This document shows, piece by piece, positions 7,901 to 53,191 of a DNA stretch of 64,000 bases (positions within the stretch are counted from its first letter, which is position 1; each line of letters opens with the position of its first letter). The stretch lies in sequence record OQ031492, one strand, 5' to 3'. The stretch comes from Escherichia phage MRostami-2023b. The position numbers and the translations under genes were made by a program. Under the pieces are notes generated by a model. That model saw only the letters and a list, made by a program, of their open reading frames with translations. It ran no database searches and was not told where the DNA came from.

Positions 7901-7988
7901 AACCATACCTAATGATTCCAGTAATGTTTCTGTAGGTAATACTGCGGTTATTCGCCCAACGCCAGTAGTAGATGTGCCAACAACCTAA
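4935..7988 (+). CDS. Tailspike/large receptor-binding protein with right-handed beta-helix (pectate-lyase-like) region
   Basis: 1017 aa; repeated N-I-x-I-x-N motifs (NITIRNVFAKRC...ISIENIHGD) characteristic of parallel beta-helix depolymerase spikes. Confidence 0.55.
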   Translation: MATFPTYPATSLEQGVDLVIFSSNQLHDVINGSATESIETESGLIPTLRKALVDNFFFKSPLDWAQGTNETVFNQLRYFQNGVLSGYYYAPNATLVNPIPMQGTPVGDNNWVLWGLKTEQLATEVTPWVYSGATGYETVISPPYIFDSAIVTINGVIQVLGEAFRIEDSKIILSEPLGHDPATGLPNKLFAYIGKIVASADTDPNLENRLVSLETKTEELTESMDKVPLQTIARKYGLLDDEVAYATAGQSLTGIKALYDPVAQSSYTLPPNITGTLTSLSVSGVMTYSGGSVDLSALAVERGQFVHLPTSFGNNVTLTAKNQTIGRGAGRYRWAGSLPKSILASDTLETSGGLGPNAWVLTNTEGLLTPRGGTYNDLFDVVYLSEFANNTTTYTTPEAAFQAALLAAKASKSKILDAYGCDMTFTTSSFDIQDITLRGGVFRGQRDYRVQNATVEGTTFRNSRVMYWGGAVRMFDCLWDGAPRAGQVGSLVFQGNPISGTFEIDNCTFKNGLYGILQQGTGEPVTRGVFRNLTFMDMQGDAIELNVINKHYDDGCVIENIYLSNIDGTNAPIPLSNWGIGIGVAGKGPYGYGIPDDQYCKNITIRNVFAKRCRQIVHVEVGRNISIENIHGDPDQTVSVGTGLATGAVVMYGSKDFTIDGVYGEPKTDGSTLASNIRMIYLEWGTNAVLDEEGNPVVPAQGRPSNPCFNYSVRNIHTKTGRVFAGVSAGPGYENRVSFENIRCAALQLFGIASWLSMSNITCNIFDCVGQPESGPGTFYDGFFRREKSVLEMVNVNCYPDGKTMVTGRPQWSRCRYSDIHRVNCNVEANMYTNIAGGIGAIVGTTGKVYYLEPNPSRNIDGMHFPTGKEFDKGDMIVKADNTFFLVTTSGAYIPDIPAFGIRATQAGDTFLTQNLTPNGTATNASWLYHYPLSAGTRIRIPGAGVGGADLDTVITRAPYQDNDTWTNPVKIDIADPIVTPTSAGVRIKTIPNDSSNVSVGNTAVIRPTPVVDVPTT

Positions 7989-15410: not shown

Positions 15411-18400
15411 CTAATGGCAACTGGCCCAGGAATTTCCCACGTCATATCCAGCAGTAAGCTGAACATTAAGATTGTAAAATTCTCCAGCCTTAGTAACAGC
15501 TAAAGCAGCAAGTTCACCTGCCCGACTATAAGCTGTAAACCATCCACCTTTGGGAGATTCATGAATGTTAGCCCAAATTTGCCCTGTCTCTTTTTCCTTA
15601 TTATGCTTCCATTCTTCGACTTTAGCAAGGCATTCTTTATCAATTTTCTTTTGTTCTTCAGGATCGTCTACTTTCTTCCAACCTAATGATTCAGGTGAAA
15701 ACCATTTGAATTCTACAAGGTTACGAGAAACTTCAAGCTGGGCTTCATCGTGGTATGCAATCATTTGTTGCACGAAGTCTTTATTCTTCCAGTCATCTTT
15801 AAAGAAGTCAACACTTAGCCCTTCTTCTTCGATCATGTCATCATAAATAACCATTGCACGTTTAGCACAGATAACCCCACCGCTTTGGAACAGAGAGTTA
15901 AGAATCGCGTGAGCAGAACGAGTAGGAACCTTACGACCGTCAATACCCAAAACATATTGTTTACCAGTCTTAACCCAAAAATCGTTTAAACGTTCTTTAA
16001 GACGCGCCAATGGGAATGCAGCTTCCCAGAAAGCATCAAACACCAATTGACCTGTAAACTTATCGCTACCAATTGTTTTAGCAACCTTGTCGGCTTGTGC
16101 ACCATAGGTAATACCATACTTAACAGATTTAGCAGGACTACGTTCAAATTTACGTCCAATAGTTTCAGTGATACGTTTTGCCATCATTGTGTGAACATCG
16201 TTAGGTTTCTCTAACAACAGAGCGTTACAATATTCGTGTGGCTCCGGCTCGTACCGCCAACAGTTNNNNNNNNNNNNNNNNNNNNNNNNNNNNNNNNNNN
16301 NNNNNNNNNNNNNNNNNNNNNNNNNNNNNNNNNNNNNNNNNNNNNNNNNNNNNNNNNNNNNNNNNNNNNNNNNNNNNNNNNNNNNNNNNNNNNNNNNNNN
16401 NNNNNNNNNNNNNNNNNNNNNNNNNNNNNNNNNNNNNNNNNNNNNNNNNNNNNNNNNNNNNNNNNNNNNNNNNNNNNNNNNNNNNNNNNNNNNNNNNNNN
16501 NNNNNNNNNNNNNNNNNNNNNNNNNNNNNNNNNNNNNNNNNNNNNNNNNNNNNNNNNNNNNNNNNNNNNNNNNNNNNNNNNNNNNNNNNNNNNNNNNNNN
16601 NNNNNNNNNNNNNNNNNNNNNNNNNNNNNNNNNNNNNNNNNNNNNNNNNNNNNNNNNNNNNNNNNNNNNNNNNNNNNNNNNNNNNNNNNNNNNNNNNNNN
16701 NNNNNNNNNNNNNNNNNNNNNNNNNNNNNNNNNNNNNNNNNNNNNNNNNNNNNNNNNNNNNNNNNNNNNNNNNNNNNNNNNNNNNNNNNNNNNNNNNNNN
16801 NNNNNNNNNNNNNNNNNNNNNNNNNNNNNNNNNNNNNNNNNNNNNNNNNNNNNNNNNNNNNNNNNNNNNNNNNNNNNNNNNNNNNNNNNNNNNNNNNNNN
16901 NNNNNNNNNNNNNNNNNNNNNNNNNNNNNNNNNNNNNNNNNNNNNNNNNNNNNNNNNNNNNNNNNNNNNNNNNNNNNNNNNNNNNNATCGCCAAACAGTA
17001 GTGTGATTCAATTTTTGCTTCCAAAGAGTCGAAGTCGTAGCCGATCTGGAAGTATTTAGGAACTTCTACACCAAACAAGTTACGCATCTCCCATCCAAAC
17101 AAAGATGTGACACGAGGAATATTAGCTACAGATCTATGCTTCATACGAGAGGTTGCAGCATCACATGTAGCGGCTGGGGTAGGAATACGCCCATCCGCCC
17201 TTACTGCGGCTAAGAAACCTTTGTCATATTCTTGATCTTCCTCATCTTCTTCCCAATCAGCACCACCGCCTAAAATAGAGTTTCTACGATGCTTATACGT
17301 TAAGTATTCTACAATCTGTGTAGCATAAGGGAATTTCTCACCTAAAGCTTGCAGGTTAGGACAGATTTCTTTTTCCTGACCTTTGGTAAAACATGGGTTA
17401 GTCAATACTTTAAGACCGCGACCCTTACCTTTTGCTATACGCTCTTGAATCTTCCTTTCCAAGGTTTCCGGTGTGCACTCCAGATGATCACAACGGTCCT
17501 GACAAAAATTAGAAGATAGAGTTTGCTCAACGTAAGCTCGAATACCTTTCTGAAGTTCTTCCTCGCTCTTTTTAATCTTGGTGCCAGATTTAAGAGTCAA
17601 GTCTTTATCTTTATATTCAGACGGTACCCAACCTAATCCTACAAGCCAGTTTTTAATATGGGTTGTATCGTTCAATGTTGCAGGGATGTTAGGATCACAC
17701 AGAGGCTCATCTGCTGCAACTGGCAGTTTCCACTCTTTCCCCAACATAACTAACCACCAATCGCCATCCCTCTCTTCCAAATGACCATCATGTTTCTTAG
17801 CAAAATTGATCATATGGTTAGTTGGCTCTAAGTTCTTTTTAATTTGCAACTTAGGTGGAATAAAAGCTTTAAGATAACCTTTTGTTGCTGGTTTAGGTGG
17901 CAAAATAGGCTCAACGAGTAAACGAAGACGCTCCATTTCTGCATCCAAAAAAGCAAGGTTCTCTTCTGCTTGTTTCATGTTAAAAGCAAACCCACGGTGT
18001 TCCTGGCGTGTAATAATGTCTGCTACACGTTGTTCAAGTTCAAATGGACCTTCCCATTTATCATAATCACCCCATTCTTCCATAAGGTAATTATATACGC
18101 TCGTATTGGCTTTGTTGTCATAGATACAGTAATAAAGCATATCCGCAGCAAAAGTCTTAAATCGATCTTCTTCTGGAATCTCTTTACGGAAATCTATTTT
18201 TACATCACCACCTGCTTTTCGAGAAAGTGCTGCCAAGCTATGTCCTGATTTGCCCTCAATCTTTCGATCTGGGTTTAACACTTTACTCAAAATCAAGGAG
18301 TCAATAAGTTTTACCTTATTTTTGCCCCACGTATTATATTTAACACTGTAATCTAATCCATAAAACAGTTTTGTAGCCAACCAGTCGTAGTTGATACCGT

Positions 18401-18743
18401 TGTGAGCCACAGCCATTTCAACCAGATATTCAGGCTTGTCTTTAAAATAACCTTCATGATTAATAAAATCTGGGAAATCTTTTAGTTGAAAATGTGTGTA
18501 ATCTTGCGCCACATACTCTTTAAGAACATATGTGTATTTACCATCTGACTCTTCATAAGGACGCCCATCAAAGATGTATTTAGGGCCATCGTGGAAAGCT
18601 ATTATTTCTCCTGTTTCATGGTTCTCTAAGACAATACAGTGCATTTGAAATGTGTCTTTGAGACGATAAGGACTAGCTAAATAATCAATAGTGTCATTAT
18701 TCAACAATCCGTTTGCTTCAATATCCCATGTAAACTTACTCAC
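15411..18743 (-). CDS. DNA polymerase, family A (PolI/T7-like) with N-terminal 3'-5' exonuclease; interior masked by 721 N
   Basis: Exo I motif WDIEANGL; motif B RSPAKSVKYGITYGAQ; motif C HDEAQLEV; 1110 codons including N run 16266-16986. Confidence 0.85.
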   Translation of the reverse strand: MSKFTWDIEANGLLNNDTIDYLASPYRLKDTFQMHCIVLENHETGEIIAFHDGPKYIFDGRPYEESDGKYTYVLKEYVAQDYTHFQLKDFPDFINHEGYFKDKPEYLVEMAVAHNGINYDWLATKLFYGLDYSVKYNTWGKNKVKLIDSLILSKVLNPDRKIEGKSGHSLAALSRKAGGDVKIDFRKEIPEEDRFKTFAADMLYYCIYDNKANTSVYNYLMEEWGDYDKWEGPFELEQRVADIITRQEHRGFAFNMKQAEENLAFLDAEMERLRLLVEPILPPKPATKGYLKAFIPPKLQIKKNLEPTNHMINFAKKHDGHLEERDGDWWLVMLGKEWKLPVAADEPLCDPNIPATLNDTTHIKNWLVGLGWVPSEYKDKDLTLKSGTKIKKSEEELQKGIRAYVEQTLSSNFCQDRCDHLECTPETLERKIQERIAKGKGRGLKVLTNPCFTKGQEKEICPNLQALGEKFPYATQIVEYLTYKHRRNSILGGGADWEEDEEDQEYDKGFLAAVRADGRIPTPAATCDAATSRMKHRSVANIPRVTSLFGWEMRNLFGVEVPKYFQIGYDFDSLEAKIESHYCLAXXXXXXXXXXXXXXXXXXXXXXXXXXXXXXXXXXXXXXXXXXXXXXXXXXXXXXXXXXXXXXXXXXXXXXXXXXXXXXXXXXXXXXXXXXXXXXXXXXXXXXXXXXXXXXXXXXXXXXXXXXXXXXXXXXXXXXXXXXXXXXXXXXXXXXXXXXXXXXXXXXXXXXXXXXXXXXXXXXXXXXXXXXXXXXXXXXXXXXXXXXXXXXXXXXXXXXXXXXXXXXXXXXXXXXXXXXXXXXXXXNCWRYEPEPHEYCNALLLEKPNDVHTMMAKRITETIGRKFERSPAKSVKYGITYGAQADKVAKTIGSDKFTGQLVFDAFWEAAFPLARLKERLNDFWVKTGKQYVLGIDGRKVPTRSAHAILNSLFQSGGVICAKRAMVIYDDMIEEEGLSVDFFKDDWKNKDFVQQMIAYHDEAQLEVSRNLVEFKWFSPESLGWKKVDDPEEQKKIDKECLAKVEEWKHNKEKETGQIWANIHESPKGGWFTAYSRAGELAALAVTKAGEFYNLNVQLTAGYDVGNSWASCH
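16266..16986. other. Masked sequence (721 N) inside DNA polymerase gene
   Basis: N run. Confidence 0.9.
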
Positions 18744-20047: not shown

Positions 20048-20072
20048 TTTTAATAAAAGGGCCGAAGCCCTT
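20048..20072 (-). terminator. Hairpin terminator after primase-helicase
   Basis: aagggc-cgaa-gccctt stem-loop followed on minus strand by U-rich tract. Confidence 0.5.
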
Positions 20073-21849
20073 AATAGTTGCTATCCGTAGGCAAATTAGC
20101 AGGATTGTTGAAATACTGCTCTTTGTCATGCAGGGTTGCAGTTCTAATGTCATAGTAAAACTGCCCTGCCGGACCAGTTTCCGAGAACTCACGGTTTTTT
20201 AGGATAAAACAATGAGTCGTATTGCGTTCTACAGGGTCTTCAGCGGCTTTATCTCGTTCCAAAGCCAAGGTAATACCAGCACCTTTAGCCAAGAAACTAC
20301 TACCCATTGCATCGTCCTCTGTTAAGTGTTCATTGCCACCATTAGCCGATTTCTTAACGTGTGAGATGACGATAATAGTTATAGCATACTCTTTCATGAT
20401 GCGCTTCAACCATGTTGCTAACTCTTCCTGGGCTTGAACATCCATACCAGAAAGCAAATCAGAATAAGGGTCGATAACAAGAATTGTTACTCCAAAATAG
20501 ATGATCATCTCCAAAACTTTTTCTTTGATAGACTCCACATCTGCTCCACGATCATCACACACATAAAAACGTGGTGATCCATCTTCTCTTTCGTAAAAAT
20601 CTAGGATTTTTTCTTTATTCTCTTCCAAGATTTGAAATTTCTCTTCCGGTGTTTTCCTGTGTAGAGGAATATGCAGGAACGAGGACAACAGGTTACGAGA
20701 ATATTTCTTATAAGTTGCTTCCAAGGATAAAATGCCTAGGGTATGTTCTGGGTGCGCAACAATAATATGTTTGGTGATCTCGTTCACCATCAAAGTTTTA
20801 CCGATACTGGTCTTTGCCAGGATGACGGTAATCTCTTCCTCTACTAAACCACCACCCAGCATATTTGCAGCAACACGCATAAAAGGAGGCAAGGTAATCA
20901 TCTTGGATTCCAAGCATTCTAATGCGGCTTCATACAAGACATTAGAAGCATAAACACCTGCTGGGGTGTATAGACGAGCACTCCAAAAAGCTTTTACGAA
21001 GTCTTTTGCACGACCTTCTTCCAGATATTGATTGGCATCCTTAAGATCCATCTGCATACGGTAGACTTTGTTACGAGGCAGCACCTTAACAATATTTTCA
21101 AATGCCTCATTACCAGCTTTGTCATTATCCATGCAAACAATAATCTTCTTAAATTTTTCAAAGAAGGGATATTGTGCCTGAACTTGTTTATACATACTGG
21201 TTTCACCAGTTGTGCCACTAACTACTGCTGGAAGTTCATATTTGTTGTCCAAGTTTTCAGACAGCATTTGATAAGCTGCCAGAGCATCGTGTTCACCACC
21301 TGTAATTACCACAGTATGAGAACGGTCTGCAAAACGAATTTGTCCAAAAAGATCTACATCTTTACCTACTTGACCAATAGGTTTACTGAAATCTTTAGGA
21401 TGAATACGACGCTTAAAACCAACCAATTCTTTACCGATAGTAGTTGGATATAAACAACTTTCTACTACCATCTGATCCCCTTCCTGACGGTATTCATAAC
21501 GAACACCATAGAAAGATGAAACTTTTTCTTTAATACCTCGATAACCACGTGGGTTGGTTGATGTTTCTTGAACAATTTTACGATGAATCTGTTTATTAAA
21601 TTCCGAACCCACAATCTCCTCCTCTTCTTCTAAAACTTCACCATTTTCTCGTAACCATTCTACGCTAGGAATAGTGTATTCACACGCAAAGCACTTAGCA
21701 CCTTTATGCTCTCCATTAGAATCTAATCCATAAACCATCAGGTTATTACGAGAGCGATCCTTGCCATTTTTCATGCAGCGCGGACAACCTGTATGCCCTT
21801 CCTTGCTAAGATCAACATCAAATCCATATTTAGTTATAATGTGCGACAC
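20071..21849 (-). CDS. Bifunctional primase-helicase (T7 gp4-like)
   Basis: N-terminal Cys4 zinc ribbon (CPRC...CFAC), TOPRIM-like CMDNDKAG, Walker A AKTSIGKT in C-terminal helicase domain. Confidence 0.8.
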   Translation of the reverse strand: MSHIITKYGFDVDLSKEGHTGCPRCMKNGKDRSRNNLMVYGLDSNGEHKGAKCFACEYTIPSVEWLRENGEVLEEEEEIVGSEFNKQIHRKIVQETSTNPRGYRGIKEKVSSFYGVRYEYRQEGDQMVVESCLYPTTIGKELVGFKRRIHPKDFSKPIGQVGKDVDLFGQIRFADRSHTVVITGGEHDALAAYQMLSENLDNKYELPAVVSGTTGETSMYKQVQAQYPFFEKFKKIIVCMDNDKAGNEAFENIVKVLPRNKVYRMQMDLKDANQYLEEGRAKDFVKAFWSARLYTPAGVYASNVLYEAALECLESKMITLPPFMRVAANMLGGGLVEEEITVILAKTSIGKTLMVNEITKHIIVAHPEHTLGILSLEATYKKYSRNLLSSFLHIPLHRKTPEEKFQILEENKEKILDFYEREDGSPRFYVCDDRGADVESIKEKVLEMIIYFGVTILVIDPYSDLLSGMDVQAQEELATWLKRIMKEYAITIIVISHVKKSANGGNEHLTEDDAMGSSFLAKGAGITLALERDKAAEDPVERNTTHCFILKNREFSETGPAGQFYYDIRTATLHDKEQYFNNPANLPTDSNY

Positions 21850-21861
21850 TTTGTTCTCCTG

Positions 21862-22140
21862 TTAAAATGGTTCGTTAGTCTCCATCATATATTCTGCTTC
21901 TAGTTCTTCCATATGCTTTCTAAATTGGAAAGCAATTTCTGCTACAGTTACATTTAAATCTTTTTCAAAAACTTCTGTAGAGCCTTCATAAAAACGAATA
22001 CCGTCAATTAAAAGCCCTCCGTGGTAATCCCAATCACTTTCACGAGAAAGCGGGTTAGGCTCTTCATAATAGTAATCCACCTCCACGACTAAAGCTTTCC
22101 CGTTACGAGTGGTGTATTCAAAATCAAAAGTGTTAATCAT
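21862..22140 (-). CDS. Hypothetical protein
   Basis: 92 aa ORF. Confidence 0.35.
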   Translation of the reverse strand: MINTFDFEYTTRNGKALVVEVDYYYEEPNPLSRESDWDYHGGLLIDGIRFYEGSTEVFEKDLNVTVAEIAFQFRKHMEELEAEYMMETNEPF

Positions 22141-23085
22141 TATAGCTCCTCAAATAAAAGTCTACGACGCTCATTCAACACATCAATGTGATAATGAGTC
22201 CTGACATACTTAGCTAATGCTAATCCTTTCTCCATGCAAACATCGGGAGCACTTAATAAGTATTCCGTAATATCTTTCCACTCGGAAGGTGTTTCAGCAA
22301 AGAATAACAAATCTTTAAACTCTTGTGTATGATAATTCTCACGAGGAGAACAGATCAAAGGTAAACCCTTAGCACCTGCCTCAAGAATTTTTAAGATTGC
22401 TTTTTGCATTATTAAACACGTTATCAATCAATGGCGCAAGACTGATTTGATGACCATCGTAAGATTCCATGTAGTTGGCATATGGTCTTACACCTTCATA
22501 AACACAAGTTGGTGCTACATTTTCTCTGATCACAGACCATTCACGACTACTTAAAACTTCAGAATCCCTACGAAAACCACATATTGTAAGATCTTTACCA
22601 AAATCGGGCAAGATAGCCAAATCTTGTTTATGTGTTTCACTTCCAGCCCAGACTAATGGAGTTTTGGAGTAGCGATCACGGGTCAACACAAATTGACCTT
22701 CATCGTAAGGAAGACCATTAGGGATTATGTGCACATTATCATTGTATTGTGAAAGTTCAACTTGCAAAGCAGGTGTCGTAGTTGTAACAAGATCGCTGTG
22801 CTCTAAAAACCATTTTAAATGTTCACGAATACCTGATTCAAAAATACCTTCTAACATGTGTCCTTTTGGAATAACTAAAGAGTCATCCAAATCCATAACC
22901 ATTTTAAAGCCTAGGTTTTTAAGGGCTAAAAAGCCCTCTTTACCTTTTGTTGGCACTCCGTTAAAAACGAAAACGTTGTGTTTAGGTTGTGAAGAGAACT
23001 GCCTTGAGTAAGGCAGCACTACCCTATGGAAATCGCAGACACTATAATTGATTCCGTTACGATTGTCAAGAATTATTTGTCCCAT
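22140..23085 (-). pseudogene. Glycosyltransferase paralogue interrupted by a frameshift (two overlapping ORFs 22381-23085 and 22140-22427)
   Basis: Both pieces align colinearly to the intact neighbour 23093-23920 (…DNVFNNAKSNLK | ILEAGAKGLPLICS…); frame changes within 22381-22427. Confidence 0.5.
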
Positions 23086-23092
23086 ACTTCAC

Positions 23093-23920
23093 CTACAAAC
23101 TTTCAATAACCTGGCGTCGCAACTCGTTTGCATCTGCCAGATTATAATGTGTTCGAACATGTTCAGCCAAGAACAAGCCACGATCTTCCCGATAGTTTGG
23201 ATTGCGAAGAAGCTTAACAATTTCGTAATGCCATTCTGCTTTATTCTCTGCGTAAGCAACAGCGCGAGCATCTACAGGGTTAAAATAAGGTAATACCTTA
23301 GAACAAACAATTGGAATACCTTTTGCTCCAGCTTCCAGGATTTTGAGATTACTTTTACAATTATTAAAATCATTATCTACCAAAGGAGCTATAGCAATAG
23401 CATGACTTTCGTAAACACTCATGTAATTATCTAAATCTTTTACAGCGGCTTTATATTTAGCATTTGGTAAATTTCTGCGAATCTTAATCCACTCTTGTCC
23501 CGTGATGCTTTGTGATGCTTCATATCCCGCAATAGTAAGAAGTTCATCATCGAAAGTATTAGAGACTAGTCGTAAGTCTGGTTCGTGACTAGCACCGCCA
23601 GCCCATACAACAGGGGTACCTGATGAACGATCATTTGACAAAGTGAATTGTCCGCTATCAAAAGGAAGTGCATTTCGGATCACAACAACATTCCTATTTA
23701 AGTGACGGATCTTATATGCCAAATATTCCGTAGTCACAATAACCACATCAGCAAGCTTAACCATAGCTACAATAGCATGAGTGTTTGACTCGTATAGACT
23801 TGCTAAATAATGTTCTGGATTAAGTTGGTAGAAATCATCTAAATCTACAACAATCTTAACACCTTGACGTTTCAAAGATAAAACGTATTCTGCACCTTTA
23901 GAATGGATACGGTTAAACAC
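23093..23920 (-). CDS. Glycosyltransferase (GT-B/GT4-like C-terminal motif)
   Basis: 275 aa; KILEAGAKGIPIVCS resembles the E-A-x-A-x-G-x-P-V-V donor-binding motif of GT1/GT4 enzymes; paralogue of adjacent gene. Confidence 0.45.
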   Translation of the reverse strand: MFNRIHSKGAEYVLSLKRQGVKIVVDLDDFYQLNPEHYLASLYESNTHAIVAMVKLADVVIVTTEYLAYKIRHLNRNVVVIRNALPFDSGQFTLSNDRSSGTPVVWAGGASHEPDLRLVSNTFDDELLTIAGYEASQSITGQEWIKIRRNLPNAKYKAAVKDLDNYMSVYESHAIAIAPLVDNDFNNCKSNLKILEAGAKGIPIVCSKVLPYFNPVDARAVAYAENKAEWHYEIVKLLRNPNYREDRGLFLAEHVRTHYNLADANELRRQVIESL

Positions 23921-24028
23921 AACAACATCTTTCTTAGGTTGAATATTATTGTTGTTAAATGGTATAACAATACGATGATAGTCACAACCGCTGTGAGGTT
24001 TTGCATCAATTTTAGTTTAGACCATTTT

Positions 24029-24712
24029 TTATTTGACATGTGCTAGTGCCTCCTCATAGGAAATTCGGATTTTCCCATTTTTAATATCTTCTAAAGATGC
24101 TTTATATTCTTCCCAGTTAATCCCAATAGCAGCCTCTTTCTCTTCTTTTGTCAGGTTAGCAAAAGGCATAGGATTGTTTCCAAAAACATCGTCTGGGTGG
24201 ATATAAGCCATGATACGAAGTGGACAAGGTGTTGCCTGAATACCATGATTCAAACCAGCAGCTTGCAAACGGTGTCCCCATTCAGCATCTTCAAAACCAT
24301 AACCGTGAGTGTAAGGACGGAAATAACCCATCTTCTCAACAACGGCACGAGAATACATTGCAAATTGACACATTGCAAGTTCCCAGAGAATAACTTCTCC
24401 TTTGCTTCCAACAACTTTATCTTTGAAGTACTCCGGCATACCAAAGAAATCCCATCCTCCAGAGACAGCTTGATCTACAAAATATGTTTCCCATCCCTCC
24501 ATGACTGGGTAGCAATCGTCGTCAAAAATAAACCAATAATCATAACCTTCTTCATAAAACTGGTGCATAAGTTCATTTCTGGCATAAGCTACACCTTTAC
24601 GATCTGGATCGTTGAATACTCGAAAATCTGCACGTGGATCTGTTACAAGGTAGTCTTTAAGTGGACGGACACCTACAGTGATAACACCCACTCCGATTTT
24701 AATATTTTCCAT
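24029..24712 (-). CDS. Glycosyltransferase (GT-A fold, DxD motif)
   Basis: 227 aa; hydrophobic strand followed by FIFDDDCYP. Confidence 0.45.
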   Translation of the reverse strand: MENIKIGVGVITVGVRPLKDYLVTDPRADFRVFNDPDRKGVAYARNELMHQFYEEGYDYWFIFDDDCYPVMEGWETYFVDQAVSGGWDFFGMPEYFKDKVVGSKGEVILWELAMCQFAMYSRAVVEKMGYFRPYTHGYGFEDAEWGHRLQAAGLNHGIQATPCPLRIMAYIHPDDVFGNNPMPFANLTKEEKEAAIGINWEEYKASLEDIKNGKIRISYEEALAHVK

Positions 24713-24720
24713 TTTCTCTC

Positions 24721-25284
24721 CTAAATAGTTTTACTGTGATCATGACAGTGTAATAAATGATGTATAGACCGTTGAGGATTTGTTTGACCTAATCTGTAAA
24801 TGTGAAACAGATACATTCCCCGCATCAATCCTAACCTCTTTCCTTTTTCATGTAAAGTGCGAGAGAAAATTAAGTCGAATTGGATAGATTTTTCTTCGAA
24901 AGGAATTTCATTCCACAATGATTTTCTAAAAAGCAAAAAGAAACCTGCCAGAGGTGTTCCGAAAGGAACTTCTTCAACACTTACTTTATGATATTCTCTT
25001 GCAATCTTAGCATATTCTATATGGTTTAGAATATCTGGATCATCGTTAATTTGGTTAGAGAAAAGCTGATAACCACTGCCTAACCTGTTACAAGTTGCAC
25101 CTATTACATCAAAAGGCGGGTTTGACATAACAAGCTCTTCAAGCATAGATGGTTGATCAGGTAGGAGGAACATTGTATCGGTATCTCTTAAACACACCCA
25201 ACTATCATCTGGAAGAACGGCAATGGCTTCATTGATAGCCTTGCCGATATTTCCTGTCAGATAGGGAGTAATATAATAAATCAT
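24721..25284 (-). CDS. Putative glycosyltransferase-like protein
   Basis: 187 aa; CLRDTDTMF DxD-like motif; weak. Confidence 0.3.
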   Translation of the reverse strand: MIYYITPYLTGNIGKAINEAIAVLPDDSWVCLRDTDTMFLLPDQPSMLEELVMSNPPFDVIGATCNRLGSGYQLFSNQINDDPDILNHIEYAKIAREYHKVSVEEVPFGTPLAGFFLLFRKSLWNEIPFEEKSIQFDLIFSRTLHEKGKRLGLMRGMYLFHIYRLGQTNPQRSIHHLLHCHDHSKTI

Positions 25285-25300
25285 TCTCCCCTCCGTTATA

Positions 25301-25492
25301 TTAACTGTCAGCTACAATCCCACGTTTAATCATTTCTTGTTGGATTTGGATCACACGATCTCGTGCTTCCATATATTCTTTAAAAGATTCTTGGAGATGG
25401 TCACGGGCTACGTCCCGTAGTTTAATCAGTTTGTCGTTTGTCACTTCTTGAAGTTCAATCTCGCCAGTTTCATTGGTCCCAAGCGTTTTCAT
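25301..25492 (-). CDS. Hypothetical small protein
   Basis: 63 aa ORF. Confidence 0.3.
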   Translation of the reverse strand: MKTLGTNETGEIELQEVTNDKLIKLRDVARDHLQESFKEYMEARDRVIQIQQEMIKRGIVADS

Positions 25493-25700
25493 TTACAACC
25501 TCCTTAATAGCTACTGCACAGTTCTTACAAATACATTGACCTTTGTTCTTAGAAATTTCAATGTAAGGTTCATTTTCGTTTTCTCCGCGTCGTGAGTCGT
25601 ATATTACTGTATTGAAGCAGACAACGCAAATGTTTTTAATAACGACATATTTTTGCACTTTCTGTTTAGTGCGAAAATTGACTTCAATGACTTCTCCCAT
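25470..25700 (-). CDS. Small Cys-rich (zinc-binding?) protein
   Basis: Start placed at internal ATG with RBS aggggag; CVVCFN...CICKNC. Confidence 0.35.
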   Translation of the reverse strand: MGEVIEVNFRTKQKVQKYVVIKNICVVCFNTVIYDSRRGENENEPYIEISKNKGQCICKNCAVAIKEVVNENAWDQ

Positions 25701-25984
25701 CAATGAATCTCCCCTAAAATGTTGTTTTGAGACATTACTGCGGAGCATTCTACAGCATCATGAGTCCTTGCAAAACGCTCCCACAACACAGCATCTACTT
25801 TAAGAACCATACAAGGATAAATACTGTCGTTGATCATGTCAATGCTATATTTATCTACATCCTTTTCATCTTCCATAAACAAAGTAGCGTATGCTTCTAA
25901 ATGCTTACGGGTGTAGTATACATCCTCTTCAGTAAGACCGACAACCAGGTAACTTGCTACAACAACAGTATTATCTTCTTGCAT
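25700..25984 (-). CDS. Hypothetical protein
   Basis: Start placed at ATG preceded by GGGGAG RBS; ATGA overlap with downstream gene. Confidence 0.35.
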   Translation of the reverse strand: MQEDNTVVVASYLVVGLTEEDVYYTRKHLEAYATLFMEDEKDVDKYSIDMINDSIYPCMVLKVDAVLWERFARTHDAVECSAVMSQNNILGEIH

Positions 25985-25985
25985 T

Positions 25986-26507
25986 TTAACTCCCCTTTGG
26001 TAGATAGAAACCATGCACTTTATCTCGATAAACAAGACGCATATCACGTTCCCAGTGTGTTCTTATATTCCGTTTCTTGAAGTATAGAGCACCTTTAGTA
26101 ACATCTAAAACAGACCGCAATTCAGGAAAATGTTTCTCTAAATAAAGTAAACGCTCCGCTATTGCTTTTGCTTCCTGCCACTTATCTTTCTCTGTTACGT
26201 TAAAAGTTTTCGCATATGAGAATTGCCCTTTCTGGAACAAGACTCCTCTGACTGTGTTAGGGAAGTAGGTATCATTTCTTCTGTTGATTACCACATTCCC
26301 AACGGCATTCATTCCTTTTTTACCCAGACCGCGACCTTCTGCGTAAATTGCACAAGCTAATAGAATTTTATCATTATATTGCTTTGTACATTTGTGAACT
26401 ACTTTAGCGGTTTTTACGTTTGCAGCTTCGGCTTTCGCCACAACAGGTGTAAATGTAAAAGCAGTTAAGGATAGTAACGCAACTGTTACAAAGTTTTTTA
26501 TCAGCAA
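25986..26507 (-). CDS. Secreted cell-wall hydrolase (SleB/Hydrolase_2-like), candidate endolysin
   Basis: N-terminal signal peptide (…PVVAKAEA); CAIYAEGRG…NAVGNVVINR…FPNTVRGVLFQKGQFS matches SleB-type motif. Confidence 0.65.
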   Translation of the reverse strand: MLIKNFVTVALLSLTAFTFTPVVAKAEAANVKTAKVVHKCTKQYNDKILLACAIYAEGRGLGKKGMNAVGNVVINRRNDTYFPNTVRGVLFQKGQFSYAKTFNVTEKDKWQEAKAIAERLLYLEKHFPELRSVLDVTKGALYFKKRNIRTHWERDMRLVYRDKVHGFYLPKGS

Positions 26508-26606: not shown

Positions 26607-27209
26607 TTACGGACATTCATACCATTCTTTTTTACCACCAAAGGCCATCACCACATCACAAATATCCAGACCAGCTTTACCTACACCATATGCTTTCAGC
26701 TTCCATTCCCCATCTTCACGAACCAAGGAAGCCACGTGGCAGATTGTGTTGCCAGCTACTTCAGGAGCCAGGAAGTCAAAATCCAGAATTTCCACATTGC
26801 GCTCGGAGTCGAAGATTTTAAGCATACCTTCAGAAGCATGACCAAAACGTTTCAGACCTGTATCATCATCAATGGTCAGAACAAAGGCAATCTCTTGTGC
26901 ATCAGGAGAGATTTTAGCCAGAGTAATATCAATCTGCTCCATGCTGCCAGTTCCATCACGAACATCGTCACCAGCGAAGGTAGAACGTTCAGGATCAAAC
27001 TTGTTAGCATAGCAAACCAGATGACGTGCAGACAGCATTTCAGGATTGCCAGCGGCATTGTGACGACAAACCAGTGCACTTACATCCAGATCTAGTTTAG
27101 AATCAGATTTCCAAGAGAATTCCAGGCGCAGTTCTTTCAGAGCCGGAGCAACTTTCTTCAGGGAAATTTTTTCGCTAGAGCCTTTTTTCAGGGAAATTTT
27201 ATCAGTCAT
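26607..27209 (-). CDS. TerD-domain protein
   Basis: 200 aa; N-terminus KISLKKGSSEKISLKK and GDDVRDGTGS Ca-binding-like motif typical of TerD/TerE family. Confidence 0.65.
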   Translation of the reverse strand: MTDKISLKKGSSEKISLKKVAPALKELRLEFSWKSDSKLDLDVSALVCRHNAAGNPEMLSARHLVCYANKFDPERSTFAGDDVRDGTGSMEQIDITLAKISPDAQEIAFVLTIDDDTGLKRFGHASEGMLKIFDSERNVEILDFDFLAPEVAGNTICHVASLVREDGEWKLKAYGVGKAGLDICDVVMAFGGKKEWYECP

Positions 27210-27224
27210 TTTTTGTCTCCTCTA

Positions 27225-27494
27225 TTATTTAAGTGTAATACCAGTTACAGTCAATTCTACTTCCAAAAGCTTAGATGTGTTTTGGATTGATACTAATTGT
27301 GCATGATGGTTTAGTTCTACAGCAGAATAATCATTTTCCCCATCATCTACTTTTAAATAAACAATGATTTCACTAAGGTCTAAACCATTTTCGTCAAATG
27401 CATTTTCATAGACGAAAGTATCTCCTACATCCAAATCTTTAATGGTAAGGCATCGTTTATTTACTTTTTGCTCATCAATTTCGAAGTTTAACAC
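27225..27494 (-). CDS. Hypothetical protein, paralogue of 28516-28794
   Basis: LDVGDTFVYENAFDENGLD…VELTVTGITLK parallels the other copy. Confidence 0.4.
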   Translation of the reverse strand: MLNFEIDEQKVNKRCLTIKDLDVGDTFVYENAFDENGLDLSEIIVYLKVDDGENDYSAVELNHHAQLVSIQNTSKLLEVELTVTGITLK

Positions 27495-27723
27495 TTCTTC
27501 CTCCTAATGTTATCTCCGGTTTGTATATACGAAGAATTATAGCATTTTCATTTTCTTTGTCAACCAATTCTTCATAATCAGGCCATACATGAATCTCTAC
27601 TCTACTTACAATATCTTCCATTCGCACAGTCCCAATGAAATACTCTTTGAGACTGCGCATAATGAAAGCTTCTCTCTCGCGCCAATAATTTTCTATGACT
27701 TGAGAGGCAAGCTCGTCGATCAT
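27475..27723 (-). CDS. Hypothetical protein
   Basis: 82 aa, translationally coupled. Confidence 0.35.
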   Translation of the reverse strand: MIDELASQVIENYWREREAFIMRSLKEYFIGTVRMEDIVSRVEIHVWPDYEELVDKENENAIILRIYKPEITLGGRSVKLRN

Positions 27724-28514
27724 TTTTTAGCACCTACTTTAACAACCCACTCTCCGAACTCTTCAGATAAGAGTTTGTCATAAAGCTCTGAATCTGTCAA
27801 GTCTAAATCTTTAATGCCAATAAAACCAACATTATCATAAGCATTTGCCAGTTCTTTCAGGAAGCCAAACTTCTCATTACCAACGCCAACCATGAACCAA
27901 TAAATAGGTTTATTCTTATTCTCTTCGATAAGACGACGAACAGCACTAGGATCACCATTCTCACCATCAGTCTGGAAGAATACAACACCAGGGGTAACGT
28001 CAGCACCTGGTTCAGATACAGCTACAACTTTTTCACGCTCTACAGACACTGTTTCAGTTTTACCAAGCAGACGATTAAAGAAGCCTTTCTTTGGAGCCTC
28101 CTCTTGTACCACTTGTTTAGTGGTAATATATTTAGTAACAGTGCCAAAATACTCATCGTAGATATCTGCCATTACAGGGGCGTAATTTGTTCCACCTCCG
28201 ATACGAACATTACGCATACATTTACCAACATAATCGTCGTAAACATTTGCTGTTGCTGGAGTAAGCTCTTGGGAACTCGTATTGAAGGCCCACATATCAA
28301 TTTGTTGATTATCGTCGAACAGCATACCAAAAGGAAGCAGTTTACCTACAAAATCACTCACTACCCCACTAGAATATAGACCATGCATACTACCAGAAAT
28401 ATCTAGAGCACATGCTACACGAAGAACAATCTTACCTTCATTCAGGTTCTTATTCTTTTTCAGAGAGAAAGCAAGGTTTTCTTGACGTTTTTTCAGGCTG
28501 ATTTTCTCGGACAT
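27720..28514 (-). CDS. von Willebrand factor A (vWA) domain protein with TerD-like N-terminal motif
   Basis: MIDAS motif DISGSM; N-terminus MSEKISLKK. Confidence 0.6.
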   Translation of the reverse strand: MSEKISLKKRQENLAFSLKKNKNLNEGKIVLRVACALDISGSMHGLYSSGVVSDFVGKLLPFGMLFDDNQQIDMWAFNTSSQELTPATANVYDDYVGKCMRNVRIGGGTNYAPVMADIYDEYFGTVTKYITTKQVVQEEAPKKGFFNRLLGKTETVSVEREKVVAVSEPGADVTPGVVFFQTDGENGDPSAVRRLIEENKNKPIYWFMVGVGNEKFGFLKELANAYDNVGFIGIKDLDLTDSELYDKLLSEEFGEWVVKVGAKK

Positions 28515-28515
28515 A

Positions 28516-28794
28516 TTATTTCTCCTTCTTAAGTGTAATATTGGTAACTTCTAAATCTACTTCCACCATATTTGTATCTGGTGGGATGCAATGAGTATAG
28601 CCTCGTTGTGCTAGTGATCCATTAATACAAATCGCACTGTTTGTGGAATTTTTAATGAACACCAAGTTACGGTAGGTATCCAACCCTGCGTCTTCATAGG
28701 CATCATAATACATGAATGTGGCCCCTACGTCAAGATCTTCGAAAGCAATAGGTAAATCCTGACTTTTTTCTTCTTGAATATTGAATCTAAACAC
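28516..28794 (-). CDS. Hypothetical protein, paralogue of 27225-27494 (GTG start)
   Basis: Start re-set to GTG after gaggagg RBS giving M-FRFNIQEE… matching MLNFEIDEQ… of paralogue. Confidence 0.4.
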   Translation of the reverse strand: MFRFNIQEEKSQDLPIAFEDLDVGATFMYYDAYEDAGLDTYRNLVFIKNSTNSAICINGSLAQRGYTHCIPPDTNMVEVDLEVTNITLKKEK

Positions 28795-29350
28795 ACATAC
28801 CTCCTCTACCAATTTTGAAGCCCAAATCGTAAGCTTCCTTAGTGATCTTTTGTAACTCACTTATAGGAAGTGTTACAAGAGGATCATCTTCTTCAATTTC
28901 CATCTTGTCATCTTCTGTTTCAATGAGAGTATTATGCACTTTGTGATAAGGGTTGTCAACACGTTTAAACTTATTCTTTTCTGTGCTGAAAAAACAATCT
29001 GGATCTTCTTCACCATCACCCCAACCTTGGTTAGGATCTCCGTCAGATTGTTCTGTAGGGATTTCACCTGTAAAGTACTCTTCCAGCACCATAGCGATAC
29101 CGTCCCTTGGATTTGAGGAATGCATCAAATCACAAACCTTACTCCAATCCATAGCCCATTCAAATCGTTCACGAACACCATTTTCATCCTCCTTTCCAGA
29201 GAAAACACAACCATAACTATCATAGTTGCCATACATCTCTTCAATAACAACACCATCCTTCAAAAGAAAGAGGTAGCAAGGCGATCCGTCGAAAGAAGTA
29301 GAAAGGGCAGCTTTGCCCGATTCTTTGCACAAAAAACTAAAACAACCCAT
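28787..29350 (-). CDS. Hypothetical acidic protein
   Basis: 187 aa ORF. Confidence 0.4.
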   Translation of the reverse strand: MGCFSFLCKESGKAALSTSFDGSPCYLFLLKDGVVIEEMYGNYDSYGCVFSGKEDENGVRERFEWAMDWSKVCDLMHSSNPRDGIAMVLEEYFTGEIPTEQSDGDPNQGWGDGEEDPDCFFSTEKNKFKRVDNPYHKVHNTLIETEDDKMEIEEDDPLVTLPISELQKITKEAYDLGFKIGRGGMCV

Positions 29351-29544
29351 TACAAACCCTCCTTCAGATTATCAAGAGCTACAGTGGTTTCACAAAATTC
29401 TCCATAAGCTTTATGATGTTCCAGAAAAGCTTCGGGTCCACCCCAGTCATTATCTTGTGTATTCCAGCCATCAATAAAAGCATCTTCAATGATTGTGATC
29501 AGTTCTTGTCGAGTCAACTGGANNNNNNNNNNNNNNNNNNNGTA

Positions 29545-29718
29545 TTATACATCTTCTTCCTCCTCTAAGATATGGAACCCGTAATTACAATAATCCTGAA
29601 AGGTTTCGTGTGCAAGATCTTCTATATCTTCTTGAGACATATCATCTTCAATTTCGATATCTACAACCTCATTGCATCCACACCAAGCAGTTTCAATATT
29701 CACTCGTAATATTTTCAT
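29545..29718 (-). CDS. Hypothetical small acidic protein
   Basis: 57 aa, RBS ggaggagg, ATG; not in ORF table (<60 aa). Confidence 0.35.
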   Translation of the reverse strand: MKILRVNIETAWCGCNEVVDIEIEDDMSQEDIEDLAHETFQDYCNYGFHILEEEEDV

Positions 29719-29915
29719 TACTCCTCCTCCTCATTGAAGTCAATATCTGCAAGGAGTTCGAATTTACGGAAGTTACGACAACCTTCATAAATATAACAAT
29801 CACGACAAACTGCTAGAACACTTGGGGGATATATGCCTCCCATCGGTGCGAATCGTTTTTCGTCATCATAACGGACACCAATGTCTTCATCAATTATATA
29901 GATACGGATTCTCAT
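29718..29915 (-). CDS. Hypothetical small protein
   Basis: 65 aa, overlaps neighbours by 1-4 nt. Confidence 0.35.
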   Translation of the reverse strand: MRIRIYIIDEDIGVRYDDEKRFAPMGGIYPPSVLAVCRDCYIYEGCRNFRKFELLADIDFNEEEE

Positions 29916-31024
29916 TTACCAAGCCCTCGTTTCACAGCAGCTACCATCCCGTCTTCCAGAGATTGAACTTCATTAATATAATCAACACGAGCAGCACGGG
30001 CTTCCGTATTGATGCGGTTAGTTTCTTCCAACATCTTAACCAAGTTTTCCTGATCGTGACGCAGAGTTTCAATATCCAACACTTGACGGTTAGCCAGTGC
30101 TGCTGCTTCGATCTGATTCTGTGTGGCAAGATCGCTACCCAGTTTAATTGCCAGGTTAAATTCATCAAGAACGTTATTCTGCGTCTCTGCTGCTTTCATT
30201 TGACGTAAGCTCTCGATATACATTGAGAAGTTAGCAGAGTAAGCAGGAATAACATTATTTACTATGTTACGCGCAGATCGCATTAAGCTTGCAGAAACTT
30301 TTTGCATACCTTGTACACGCGGTCCCATTTGGACACACAGTAGGCGCAATGCTTTTAAATCTGCAATACGAATCTCCAGAAGATCCAAAGTATCTCGGAT
30401 CACTTGTCGCTGTTCTACTGCATCTTCTGGAAGAGCAGCCAAAGCTTGTTCTTCTTTTTCATAGGTTGCTGTTAGAAGCTGCATATCTCGGTTCAAACTT
30501 GCAGCATATTGTCCAATAGCTTGATGTAGCTTTTCAAGATATACCAAGGAATCTTCTTCTTTGCGAATATCCATTTGAAGGTTCTTTACCAACTCTTCAA
30601 TACGGTTATTAACATTATCAAACTCCCCAAACAGATCTTCTTTCATACCCATAACTTTTTTAATGAGTTTAGTAATACCCTTGCTTTGTTTAATAGAGTT
30701 TGGATCAAGTTGTTTTGCCTGTTTAATCAAAGCTGTGAGTCGTTCACTCATCTGATCGCCTTGATTACTACGTTGATGTTTTAATACCTCGGCATTCAAG
30801 GAACGCAAGGTTGTTCCTGCCTCTGCCCCAATCTCTTCAATCTCTTGTCGGGTCATAGAAGGCAAAACTGGAACTTCTTGCGGTGCCGCTGGTGCATAAA
30901 CAGGACTGGCATCTAACACGCTTGGAGCGAATACAGATTTACTTGCATCGGTTGTTGCAGCAAATACGCTCATTTCAGGCTTCTTCTGACCACCAGTAGC
31001 TGCTTTTAAAAATGGACTTGTCAT
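29912..31024 (-). CDS. TelA-like (toxic anion resistance / KlaA family) protein
   Basis: 370 aa, alpha-helical composition; size and Ter-gene context; by-eye only. Confidence 0.4.
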   Translation of the reverse strand: MTSPFLKAATGGQKKPEMSVFAATTDASKSVFAPSVLDASPVYAPAAPQEVPVLPSMTRQEIEEIGAEAGTTLRSLNAEVLKHQRSNQGDQMSERLTALIKQAKQLDPNSIKQSKGITKLIKKVMGMKEDLFGEFDNVNNRIEELVKNLQMDIRKEEDSLVYLEKLHQAIGQYAASLNRDMQLLTATYEKEEQALAALPEDAVEQRQVIRDTLDLLEIRIADLKALRLLCVQMGPRVQGMQKVSASLMRSARNIVNNVIPAYSANFSMYIESLRQMKAAETQNNVLDEFNLAIKLGSDLATQNQIEAAALANRQVLDIETLRHDQENLVKMLEETNRINTEARAARVDYINEVQSLEDGMVAAVKRGLGK

Positions 31025-39667: not shown

Positions 39668-39693
39668 CAAAAAAAGGCGCAAAGTGCGCCTTT
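39668..39693 (-). terminator. Rho-independent terminator
   Basis: ggcgca-aag-tgcgcc hairpin flanked by A8 (U-run on minus transcript). Confidence 0.75.
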
Positions 39694-52282: not shown

Positions 52283-53191
52283 NNNNNNNNNNNNNNNNNN
52301 NNNNNNNNNNNNNNNNNNNNNNNNNNNNNNNNNNNNNNNNNNNNNNNNNNNNNNNNNNNNNNNNNNNNNNNNNNNNNNNNNNNNNNNNNNNNNNNNNNNN
52401 NNNNNNNNNNNNNNNNNNNNNNNNNNNNNNNNNNNNNNNNNNNNNNNNNNNNNNNNNNNNNNNNNNNNNNNNNNNNNNNNNNNNNNNNNNNNNNNNNNNN
52501 NNNNNNNNNNNNNNNNNNNNNNNNNNNNNNNNNNNNNNNNNNNNNNNNNNNNNNNNNNNNNNNNNNNNNNNNNNNNNNNNNNNNNNNNNNNNNNNNNNNN
52601 NNNNNNNNNNNNNNNNNNNNNNNNNNNNNNNNNNNNNNNNNNNNNNNNNNNNNNNNNNNNNNNNNNNNNNNNNNNNNNNNNNNNNNNNNNNNNNNNNNNN
52701 NNNNNNNNNNNNNNNNNNNNNNNNNNNNNNNNNNNNNNNNNNNNNNNNNNNNNNNNNNNNNNNNNNNNNNNNNNNNNNNNNNNNNNNNNNNNNNNNNNNN
52801 NNNNNNNNNNNNNNNNNNNNNNNNNNNNNNNNNNNNNNNNNNNNNNNNNNNNNNNNNNNNNNNNNNNNNNNNNNNNNNNNNNNNNNNNNNNNNNNNNNNN
52901 NNNNNNNNNNNNNNNNNNNNNNNNNNNNNNNNNNNNNNNNNNNNNNNNNNNNNNNNNNNNNNNNNNNNNNNNNNNNNNNNNNNNNNNNNNNNNNNNNNNN
53001 NNNNNNNNNNNNNNNNNNNNNNNNNNNNNNNNNNNNNNNNNNNNNNNNNNNNNNNNNNNNNNNNNNNNNNNNNNNNNNNNNNNNNNNNNNNNNNNNNNNN
53101 NNNNNNNNNNNNNNNNNNNNNNNNNNNNNNNNNNNNNNNNNNNNNNNNNNNNNNNNNNNNNNNNNNNNNNNNNNNNNNNNNNNNNNNNNNN
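52283..53191. other. Masked sequence (909 N)
   Basis: N run; content unknowable. Confidence 0.9.

Follow-up and report, generated by a model that had tools for sequence, protein, structure and literature searches.

Introduction

To our knowledge, glycosylation of phage virions has so far been shown only for actinobacteriophages, where it shields the particles from antibodies. The C termini of capsid and tail-tube subunits are reportedly where the glycans are attached, and there is said to be little evidence for such glycosylation beyond the actinobacteriophages. In one published account, which cites Freeman et al. 2023 (Cell Host Microbe 31:1216), the cluster F1 phages Che8 and Rita are reported to carry glycans on their capsid proteins that act as a shield against antibodies (PMC11256854). 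Here we examine four glycosyltransferase (GT) genes in a 64,000-nucleotide stretch of Escherichia phage MRostami-2023b (record OQ031492; the whole stretch is called the window below), a Phapecoctavirus, that is, a phAPEC8-like Escherichia coli myophage of the Stephanstirmvirinae. We propose, with a probability that we put at roughly one half, that these genes belong to a portable cassette for the O-glycosylation of virion proteins, and that the cassette is disabled in this isolate at both of its GT-B steps. RefSeq already lists the genes as glycosyltransferases.

Results

Four glycosyltransferase genes

The four genes lie at 22140-25284, all on the minus strand and inside a long minus-strand block:

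22140-23085, minus strand: GT-B paralogue 1, split (orthologue of 314 amino acids)
23093-24039, minus strand: GT-B paralogue 2, disrupted at its 5′ end (orthologue of 315 amino acids)
24029-24712, minus strand: GT-A227, an intact GT2-like enzyme of 227 amino acids
24721-25284, minus strand: GT187, a small GT of GT-A fold, 187 amino acids, the first gene of the cassette

The cluster consists of two GT-B and two GT-A enzymes. An original prediction made from the sequence had described four glycosyltransferase-like genes, among them two tandem GT-B/GT4-like paralogues, a GT-A enzyme with a DxD motif, and one further GT-like open reading frame (ORF), and in this it was correct. Both GT-B copies match phrog_7162 (E values of 1e-36 to 1e-131) and are about 41% identical to each other, the 227-residue ORF matches phrog_2456 (1e-78), the 187-residue ORF matches phrog_14179 (8e-113), and RefSeq carries the entry "glycosyltransferase (x4)" in the relatives tuntematon and phAPEC8. 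The classification that had been called for, by hidden Markov models (HMMs) and structure, came out strong in PHROG, supportive of the GT-A folds, and weak in Pfam, where most scores are below threshold. The only gathering score reached is that of the intact tuntematon orthologue of paralogue 1 against PF13524 (25.1 bits, cut-off 25); the orthologue of paralogue 2 stays below the cut-off at 22.8 and 20.4 bits. Matches to Glyco_transf_4 fall in the N-terminal half and those to Glyco_trans_1 (1_4, 1_2) in the C-terminal half, and this split of the Pfam matches supports a putative two-Rossmann-domain GT-B fold for the paralogues.

For the 227-residue ORF the Pfam matches, to TAGT, Glyco_transf_7C, and Glycos_transf_2, are all sub-threshold (best scores 19.5, 13.6, and 13.3 bits), and the 187-residue ORF has no Pfam glycosyltransferase match. 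NCBIfam returned nothing relevant for the proteins of the cluster, and sequence searches of PDB chains with the four proteins and the two GT-A family profiles gave no meaningful match. The predicted structures of the 227- and 187-residue proteins nevertheless show a single Rossmann-like alpha/beta/alpha nucleotide-sugar-binding GT-A fold, with GlfT2, TarP, TarS, RmlT, and K4CP as fold neighbours and at most 18% sequence identity to solved structures. GT-A227 carries the motifs FIFDDD and YGxED, its D64-D65-D66 being invariant in 17 sequences, and D34-x-D36 of GT187 is nearly invariant among 32. A relationship between GT187 and the GT-A227-type ORFs of prophages was considered and rejected when the comparison showed none.

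A cassette tied to the structural module of temperate phages

In a set of 5.8 billion proteins we found 17 homologues of GT-A227, 32 of GT187, and 207 of GT-B, many of the last carrying precomputed assignments to PF13524 or PF13692 and some being named from bacterial genomes. The GT-B family has at least 571 matches in IMG/VR; among 50,697 records of isolated phages it is present in only 139, nearly all of which belong to the Stephanstirmvirinae. The bacterial copies of the cassette genes lie in prophages. An Enterobacter huaxiensis prophage (locus L010) has the order lysis gene, GT187, NAD-dependent epimerase/dehydratase, GT-A227, GT-B, HNH, terminase, capsid, portal, with identities to the window proteins of 44% for GT187, 38% for GT-A227, and 46% for GT-B. 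In a Pseudomonas alliivorans prophage (L015) GT187, GT-A227, and GT-B follow one another in that order as well, with the major capsid gene on one side and the genes for connector, tail terminator, and tail tube on the other. A P. silvicola prophage, a family of 24 contigs, and a Mu-like phage (L008, L011-13, L017) have the pair GT-A227 plus GT-B adjoining their terminase and portal genes. The cassette is tied to the structural module in five temperate-phage contexts.

Related large myoviruses preserve the layout of the window (SleB, small ORFs, GT187, GT-A, GT-B, an ORF of about 90 residues, primase). GT-B is present there once (L016) or twice (L025), so that the tandem duplication is specific to some lineages, and in one myovirus (L024) an epimerase of the L010 type is inserted within the cassette. 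Because the same gene order recurs across prophages and myoviruses, the three genes GT187, GT-A227, and GT-B are, judging from their synteny, a portable cassette.

Chromosomal GT-B homologues are also found in Burkholderia dolosa (L009) and Trinickia symbiotica (L014), beside invasin/intimin-type adhesins. At both loci (L009 3025-8440; L014 2742-9026) an inverse-autotransporter adhesin is followed by an unannotated protein of 555-571 residues and then by the GT-B protein (341-411 residues, 42-45% identical). The three-gene unit may be an adhesin glycosylation system, and this company of the GT-B homologues points towards protein acceptors.

Thr-Thr ends on virion proteins

The C termini encoded at 86 GT-B loci were surveyed with a crude ORF caller and local HMMs; the loci, which are few and partly related or redundant, comprise 43 with GT-B only, 24 with GT-A227, 10 with all three genes, and 5 with GT187. 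ORFs of at least 100 residues that end in Thr-Thr (TT) number 12 of 640 at the GT-A227 loci as against 3 of 610 at the GT-B-only loci, and the internal frequency of the TT dipeptide is 0.34%. Nine of the ten TT-ending ORFs given to PHROG are virion proteins, a head-closure protein and a virion structural protein among them; the tenth, a 102-residue ORF at L070, has no PHROG match. It is also the only exception among all TT-ending ORFs of this length that were checked in the 86 loci by PHROG or precomputed Pfam, two opposite-strand ORFs of 100 residues having been left unchecked. Major head proteins end in ...ANPTT, ...AAPTT, ...THPTT, ...ANTTT, and ...SSSTT, and major tail proteins in ...LEPTT, ...GGPTT, ...SEPTT, ...GEATT, and ...WTTT; in the two prophages described above, the L015 capsid ends in ...TSSSTT and its tail tube in ...TSEPTT, while the L010 capsid ends in ...GANTTT.

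When all recognisable homologues at cassette loci are counted, the TT end, often preceded by Pro, is found on 7 of 11 capsids, on all 5 of the major tail proteins, and on none of six homologous HK97-type capsids from isolated phages that lack the GT-B family. These controls, homologous through the segment ...VYRPEsFV.G..., end in ...LTAS, ...FDAP, ...QAGG, ...ASGG, ...GGEG, and ...DPTP. TT tags and cassette thus occur together in temperate phages. Since the tagged proteins span several unrelated capsid and tail families, the tag looks convergent, as an acceptor motif would be expected to.

Relationship to a mycobacteriophage glycosyltransferase

A tblastn search with GT-A227 matched 356 Mycobacterium phage records at E values of about 1e-8, the matches being Cheoctovirus glycosyltransferases encoded by right-end genes. 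Alignment with hhalign to the N-terminal domain of gp105 of the Cheoctovirus Polka14 covered 194 columns at a probability of 99.2% (E = 3e-19, 27% identity). The Polka14 genes for gp105-gp107 correspond to L026 3318-5583; gp105 has 478 residues, of which only the N-terminal 235 or so match GT-A227, and its C-terminal half, which lacks a coliphage counterpart, may carry acceptor recognition. GT187 was tried as a relative of gp107 and showed no relation to it.

Both GT-B genes are frameshifted

One paralogue had been predicted to be intact and the other split by a frameshift. The frameshift in the first copy is there, but the second copy is frameshifted as well, so both GT-B genes are broken:

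22388-22392: frameshift site 1, T5 on the plus strand (A5 in the coding sense), where relatives have four
24010-24013: frameshift site 2, T4 on the plus strand (A4 in the coding sense), where relatives have five

In paralogue 1 a one-nucleotide insertion, immediately upstream of the conserved KILEAGAKG motif, leaves ORFs of 234 and 95 residues, with the break inside the C-terminal domain. Paralogue 2 was listed as a 275-residue ORF with a GTG start (23093-23920). Its real start is the ATG at 24039, which overlaps the GT-A227 stop, and from there 10 correct codons run into an out-of-frame ORF of 55 codons. The remaining ORF (23093-23920) is without about 40 N-terminal residues that are kept in the paralogue and in all homologues, and tblastn of the intact orthologue against the window aligned residues 10-315 only. 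Automated annotation would miscall this gene as a 275-residue protein.

The two frameshifts are absent from all relatives examined. Both orthologues are uninterrupted (314 and 315 residues) in tuntematon, phAPEC8, and ASO2A, and both genes are intact in the metagenomic relatives L006 and L018 (an IMG/VR contig and a contig from a metagenome-assembled genome). In short-query megablast searches the window allele occurred in 0 of 64 matching phage records at site 1 and in 0 of 41 at site 2, where the 71-base query aligned to 72 bases in all 41 records and to none of them at 100% identity. An exact-pattern scan of IMG/VR found neither frameshift allele, and found the wild-type control pattern for site 1 in one contig.

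The alignment with tuntematon took in the whole window and that with ASO2A about 45 kb, and indels were mapped onto the coding sequences of tuntematon. Within a 12.5-kb block of 99.2% identity the two GT-B indels are the only genuine ones, a third lying at the edge of a masked N-run. One-nucleotide homopolymer indels private to the window with respect to both relatives number three in the roughly 45 kb, two of them in the 1.9 kb of the GT-B genes; the chance that at least two of three random private indels would fall there is about 0.005. The mapping found no other coding sequence with a disruptive net frame change, apart from altered last 2-4 codons in two small ORFs, one of these changes being common to ASO2A. 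Poor sequence quality throughout, which we considered as a cause, is at odds with this absence of other disrupted coding sequences. The third private indel, at 39669-39675, gives A7 in place of the A6 of tuntematon and ASO2A; this intergenic site lies upstream of an anaerobic ribonucleotide reductase gene and near a terminator annotated in ASO2A.

Because two of the three private homopolymer indels fall in the GT-B genes, real inactivation is likelier than random sequencing error, and we regard the frameshifts as probably genuine loss-of-function mutations. That they are homopolymer errors of sequencing or assembly, and that the real phage has four intact genes, is the sort of explanation that single-base indels in A/T runs, a classic type of error, invite; neither allele recurs in any other record, and the private indel in the intergenic A7 run would fit the same account. 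We nonetheless think it somewhat unlikely: the runs are only 4-5 bases long, the sequence agrees with its relatives at longer runs and leaves the remaining coding sequences undisrupted, the indels cluster in two paralogues with the low chance given above, and the pathway is dispensable and variable in the genus, as judged by the phage ESCO37, which lacks rmlA and rmlB.

Programmed recoding or phase variation at slippery A-runs, regulating GT-B expression, would account for the similar context of the two sites, CTnAAAA(A)TT, and is extremely improbable. The in-frame allele is found in all 64 relatives at site 1 and all 41 at site 2, A tracts this short should not slip appreciably, an X XXY YYZ heptamer is lacking, and no downstream structure was seen, although none was sought. 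Moreover, the shift required is +1 at site 1 but -1 at site 2, and no common mechanism serves both.

Surroundings of the cluster

Megablast with 21800-25500 found 67 phage records covering at least 80% of the query, nearly all of them Escherichia phages of the genus Phapecoctavirus; ASO2A and tuntematon are closest, at about 99.4% identity, and no record is identical. The neighbouring features are the following:

15411-18743, minus strand: DNA polymerase ORF, 1110 amino acids
18743-19537, minus strand: methyltransferase-like gene (adenine-methyltransferase-like)
20071-21849, minus strand: primase-helicase
21862-22140, minus strand: conserved ORF of 92 amino acids that follows GT-B in myovirus relatives (phrog_4240, E = 6e-33)
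25301-26047: three small ORFs upstream of the GT genes
25986-26507: SleB-type endolysin, upstream of the GT genes

The cluster had been placed between primase-helicase and endolysin, and the four genes are indeed found there, but not flush with either, as the 92-residue ORF and the three small ORFs intervene. Orthologues of the 92-residue ORF occupy the same position in L016 (63% identity) and are 100% identical in L006 and L018, and the prophage versions of the cassette have no counterpart; it is possibly part of the glycosylation module.

Several other features stand out. Immediately upstream of the endolysin and the GT genes there is a tellurite-resistance-like set (TerD-like, 26607-27209; vWA-TerF-like, 27720-28514; TelA-like, 29912-31024), with TerC further along in relatives, and this set keeps its synteny in the distant myoviruses L016 and L025. 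About 2.7 kb of the window is masked, in 11 N-runs between 15373 and 61825 (15373-81, 16266-986, 29523-41, 36237-435, 45184-444, 47877-968, 52283-53191, 55502-10, 58894-922, 59147-325, and 61552-825), several of which sit where relatives differ by insertions and limit the comparison of gene content there. The run at 16266-16986 (721 masked bases) is an in-frame insertion in the DNA polymerase ORF. Tuntematon and ASO2A lack it, and their alignments run on continuously over this point; the polymerase has 865 residues in those two phages as against 1110 here, 1104 in L016, and 863 in L024, which suggests an intein or other mobile insertion in polA of some lineages. Some records that share about 98% identity with E. 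coli phapecoctaviruses or phi92-like phages bear the names Campylobacter phage (B15, A141, A145), Acinetobacter phage ABPW7, Pseudomonas phage PsgM04F, and "Dompiswa phage"; these host labels are probably wrong or the result of contamination.

DNA as a possible acceptor

The first option of the original prediction was hypermodification of phage DNA. In the form weighed here, the enzymes would glycosylate, for instance rhamnosylate, hydroxymethylated bases against restriction, as in the T-even and TET-associated pathways. Olsen et al. speculated along the same lines on rhamnosylated hydroxymethyl nucleotides (PMC7552041), and rhamnosylated DNA is the standing guess in the literature. The cassette does lie near the primase-helicase, the adenine-methyltransferase-like gene, and the DNA polymerase. 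GT-A227 has a weak local match to Pfam TAGT (E = 1e-3, 37 residues), a match to phrog_842 (beta-glucosyl-HMC-alpha-glucosyltransferase; E = 8e-6), and an R...DDD...ED motif like that of DNA-modifying GT-A enzymes, and in prophages the cassette abuts the terminase, a position known for some DNA-modifying glycosyltransferases (10.1101/2023.12.21.572611). The TAGT family (PF20691) scores 19.5 bits where 27.5 are required, the likeness to TAGT and phrog_842 is confined to the generic DxD region, and proximity to the polymerase and methyltransferase carries no weight as a clue, the same cassette lying among head and tail genes in other phages. According to the same preprint, most GT-bearing contigs lack base-modification partners (10.1101/2023.12.21.572611).

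Here, the candidate genes that were scanned yielded no ThyA-like hydroxymethylase, TET/5mYOX, or C5-methyltransferase, only ThyX; the search covered the annotation of the relative SKA64 (1-50 kb and 128-152 kb) and of the tuntematon equivalent of the window, with Pfam applied to ten candidates rather than to every ORF of the genome, and the Pfam scan returned ThyX, NT5C, and a phosphoesterase only. The candidate phAPEC8_0075, hinted to be a C5 cytosine methylase in a note to the SKA64 record, has no Pfam support. No base-modifying enzyme lies within 8 kb on either side of the cassette in any prophage context. Restriction sensitivity, proposed as a check, can be read from the literature on relatives, whose DNA is cut or susceptible to restriction-modification (RM) systems and not protected: phi92-like phages, whose cassette is 75% identical, have been described as "exceptionally susceptible" to RM "despite a putative dTDP glycosylation machinery" (PMC8594841), and HincII cuts Phapecoctavirus DNA, isolates having been typed in this way, while only three Tevenvirinae resisted (PMC10269720). 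DNA as the acceptor would also leave the TT tags on capsid and tail proteins unexplained. With no hydroxymethyl-base enzyme found and restriction-sensitive relatives, we consider DNA hypermodification very unlikely.

The host envelope as a possible acceptor, and a plausible sugar donor

The second option had been glycosylation of virion or host-surface components. The virion half of it gains support from the structural context, the TT tags, and the Che8-type homology, whereas the host-surface half fits poorly. Enzymes that remodel the host envelope would modify intermediates of lipopolysaccharide (LPS), enterobacterial common antigen (ECA), or colanic acid and so block superinfection or the adsorption of progeny to debris. 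For the phages in question ECA, LPS, and capsule serve as receptors, and their fibres degrade glycans (PMC8594841). The authors describing ZCKP1 proposed surface modification, JGI annotators named some GT-B homologues cell-wall biosynthesis glycosyltransferases, and the fold neighbours TarP, TarS, RmlT, and K4CP include glycosyltransferases of wall teichoic acid and polysaccharide. Seroconversion genes that act in lysogens usually lie near integrase or immunity genes; the temperate-phage cassette is instead part of the late structural operon. Its surroundings contain no flippase, GtrA-like partner, or polymerase gene, and once more the TT tags on capsid and tail proteins would go unexplained. 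Envelope remodelling thus seems unlikely.

As to the donor, phapecoctaviruses and phi92-like phages encode a complete dTDP-rhamnose pathway, as described by Olsen et al. (PMC7552041). In SKA64 the genes rfbB, rfbA, rfbC, and rfbD occupy 26991-30269, beside thyX and nrdA and about 75 kb from the cassette; the idea that dTDP-rhamnose genes form part of the window was dropped, as they are absent from it. ESCO37 is without rmlA and rmlB (PMC10269720) though its GT region is intact, and the dTDP-rhamnose pathway is therefore accessory.

Candidate acceptors in Phapecoctavirus

Only one of 86 window ORFs of at least 80 residues ends in [ST]T:

4935-7988, plus strand: tailspike of 1017 amino acids (Pfam Tail_spike_N; "colanic acid-degrading protein" in relatives), ending in ...RPTPVVDVPTT

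The C-terminal tail of this protein is identical in tuntematon gp130. Its last 26 or so residues (about 7905-7985) form an extension specific to Phapecoctavirus, with 100% conservation throughout the genus, that the homologous colanidases of phi92-like and T7-like phages lack. The tailspike is, suggestively, a candidate acceptor of the glycan.

Discussion

The recurrence of the cassette beside head and tail genes, the TT ends of the proteins that those genes encode, and the relationship of GT-A227 to a mycobacteriophage enzyme lead us to favour O-glycosylation of virion proteins. We suspect that the soluble enzymes of the cassette would act in the infected cell on nucleotide sugars, the donor plausibly including dTDP-L-rhamnose made by RmlABCD, whose genes close relatives carry elsewhere in the genome. 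Each enzyme would add one sugar, yielding a short O-linked glycan on virion structural proteins, attached, on the model of the Che8-type mycobacteriophages, at or near C-terminal Thr residues. The likely outcome would be a surface coat of glycan on the particle. In the present isolate, with both GT-B steps inactivated, the glycan would be truncated or missing altogether. Since both GT-B genes are broken here and ESCO37 lacks rmlA and rmlB, the glycosylation function would be dispensable for lytic growth. The acceptor, the sugar, the order in which the enzymes act, and the reality of the indels are what we infer here.

Several facts weigh against this proposal. In the window and in its myovirus relatives the cassette lies among replication genes and not among structural genes, and the rml genes were not found in the 64 kb of the window. 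The survey that revealed the tags has the size and redundancy stated above, and one prophage family with the GT-A227 and GT-B pair has a capsid ending in ...YFDGL. Within the phage group itself the pattern is weak: in SKA64 the major head protein ends in ...VVKLTTA, as it does in phi92, so that TT is present but not terminal, and the decoration protein, tail tube, and sheath end in ...VVFTS, ...SALTIQ, and ...NRTAN. Capsids of other rV5-like genera end in ...ATLKGA, ...LTGTFA, and ...GKFTA, which does not set cassette-positive phages apart, those relatives not being clearly cassette-negative. The colanidase of phi92, a cassette-positive phage, ends in ...TVNNA. Finally, the literature searched contains no report of glycosylated virions in any Stephanstirmvirinae phage.

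A wider form of the proposal can be offered tentatively, and we give it less credence than the form just set out. The cassette (GT187, GT-A227, and GT-B, with or without the epimerase) might represent a widespread and previously unrecognised system of virion O-glycosylation in phages of Proteobacteria, one that recognises a C-terminal (Pro)-Thr-Thr tag and of which the present isolate would be a natural double GT-B knockout. Tagged major capsid proteins, tail-tube proteins, and some fibre proteins would be its substrates, the coat may contain rhamnose, and the Stephanstirmvirinae coliphages would carry the system.

Phapecoctavirus and phi92-like phages are broad-host-range coliphages that are frequent in therapeutic cocktails. 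If virion glycosylation is confirmed in them, a phenomenon known only from actinobacteriophages would extend to coliphages relevant to therapy, and a glycan coat would affect immunogenicity, clearance, and perhaps adsorption. Set against the rhamnosylated DNA of the literature, our analysis offers a testable alternative with named acceptor candidates. The isolate, if its frameshifts are real, would serve as a natural loss-of-function control, and viromes could be screened for the combination of the cassette with capsid or tail proteins that end in (P)TT.

It remains to set the cassette beside the systems that it most resembles. The chlorovirus PBCV-1 and mimivirus enzymes that act on capsid or fibrils (A64R, R655, R699) belong to eukaryotic giant viruses; they are alike at the level of the fold, and their acceptor chemistry differs. 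The GT2-like GT-A and GT4-like GT-B enzymes of cell-surface glycan synthesis (GlfT2, TarP, RmlT, K4CP) have the same folds and catalytic motifs, but the context of the cassette is viral and structural rather than that of a polysaccharide locus, and no PDB relative is detectable by sequence. The DNA glycosyltransferases of T-even phages and the TET-associated enzymes (TAGT, PF20691) are likewise phage-encoded GT-A and GT-B proteins near DNA metabolism with generic DDD and ED motifs; here, however, no hydroxymethyl-base pathway was found, the DNA of relatives is restriction-sensitive, and the family scores are below cut-off.

The remaining comparison is with the Che8-type system of Cheoctovirus. 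It differs in several respects: the hosts here are Gram-negative, the partner enzymes are a GT-B and a small GT-A, the second Cheoctovirus enzyme, gp107, is unrelated to the cassette, GT187 and GT-B have no counterpart there, neither the capsid nor the tail tube of Phapecoctavirus shows an obvious TT tag, and cassette phages supply dTDP-rhamnose or carry an epimerase/dehydratase. Yet both systems use glycosyltransferases encoded by the phage itself, the homology between GT-A227 and the N-terminal GT-A domain of gp105 extends over almost the full length of GT-A227, and in cassette-bearing phages of Proteobacteria the TT ends are found on exactly the capsid and the tail tube, the subunits that reportedly bear the mycobacteriophage glycans.

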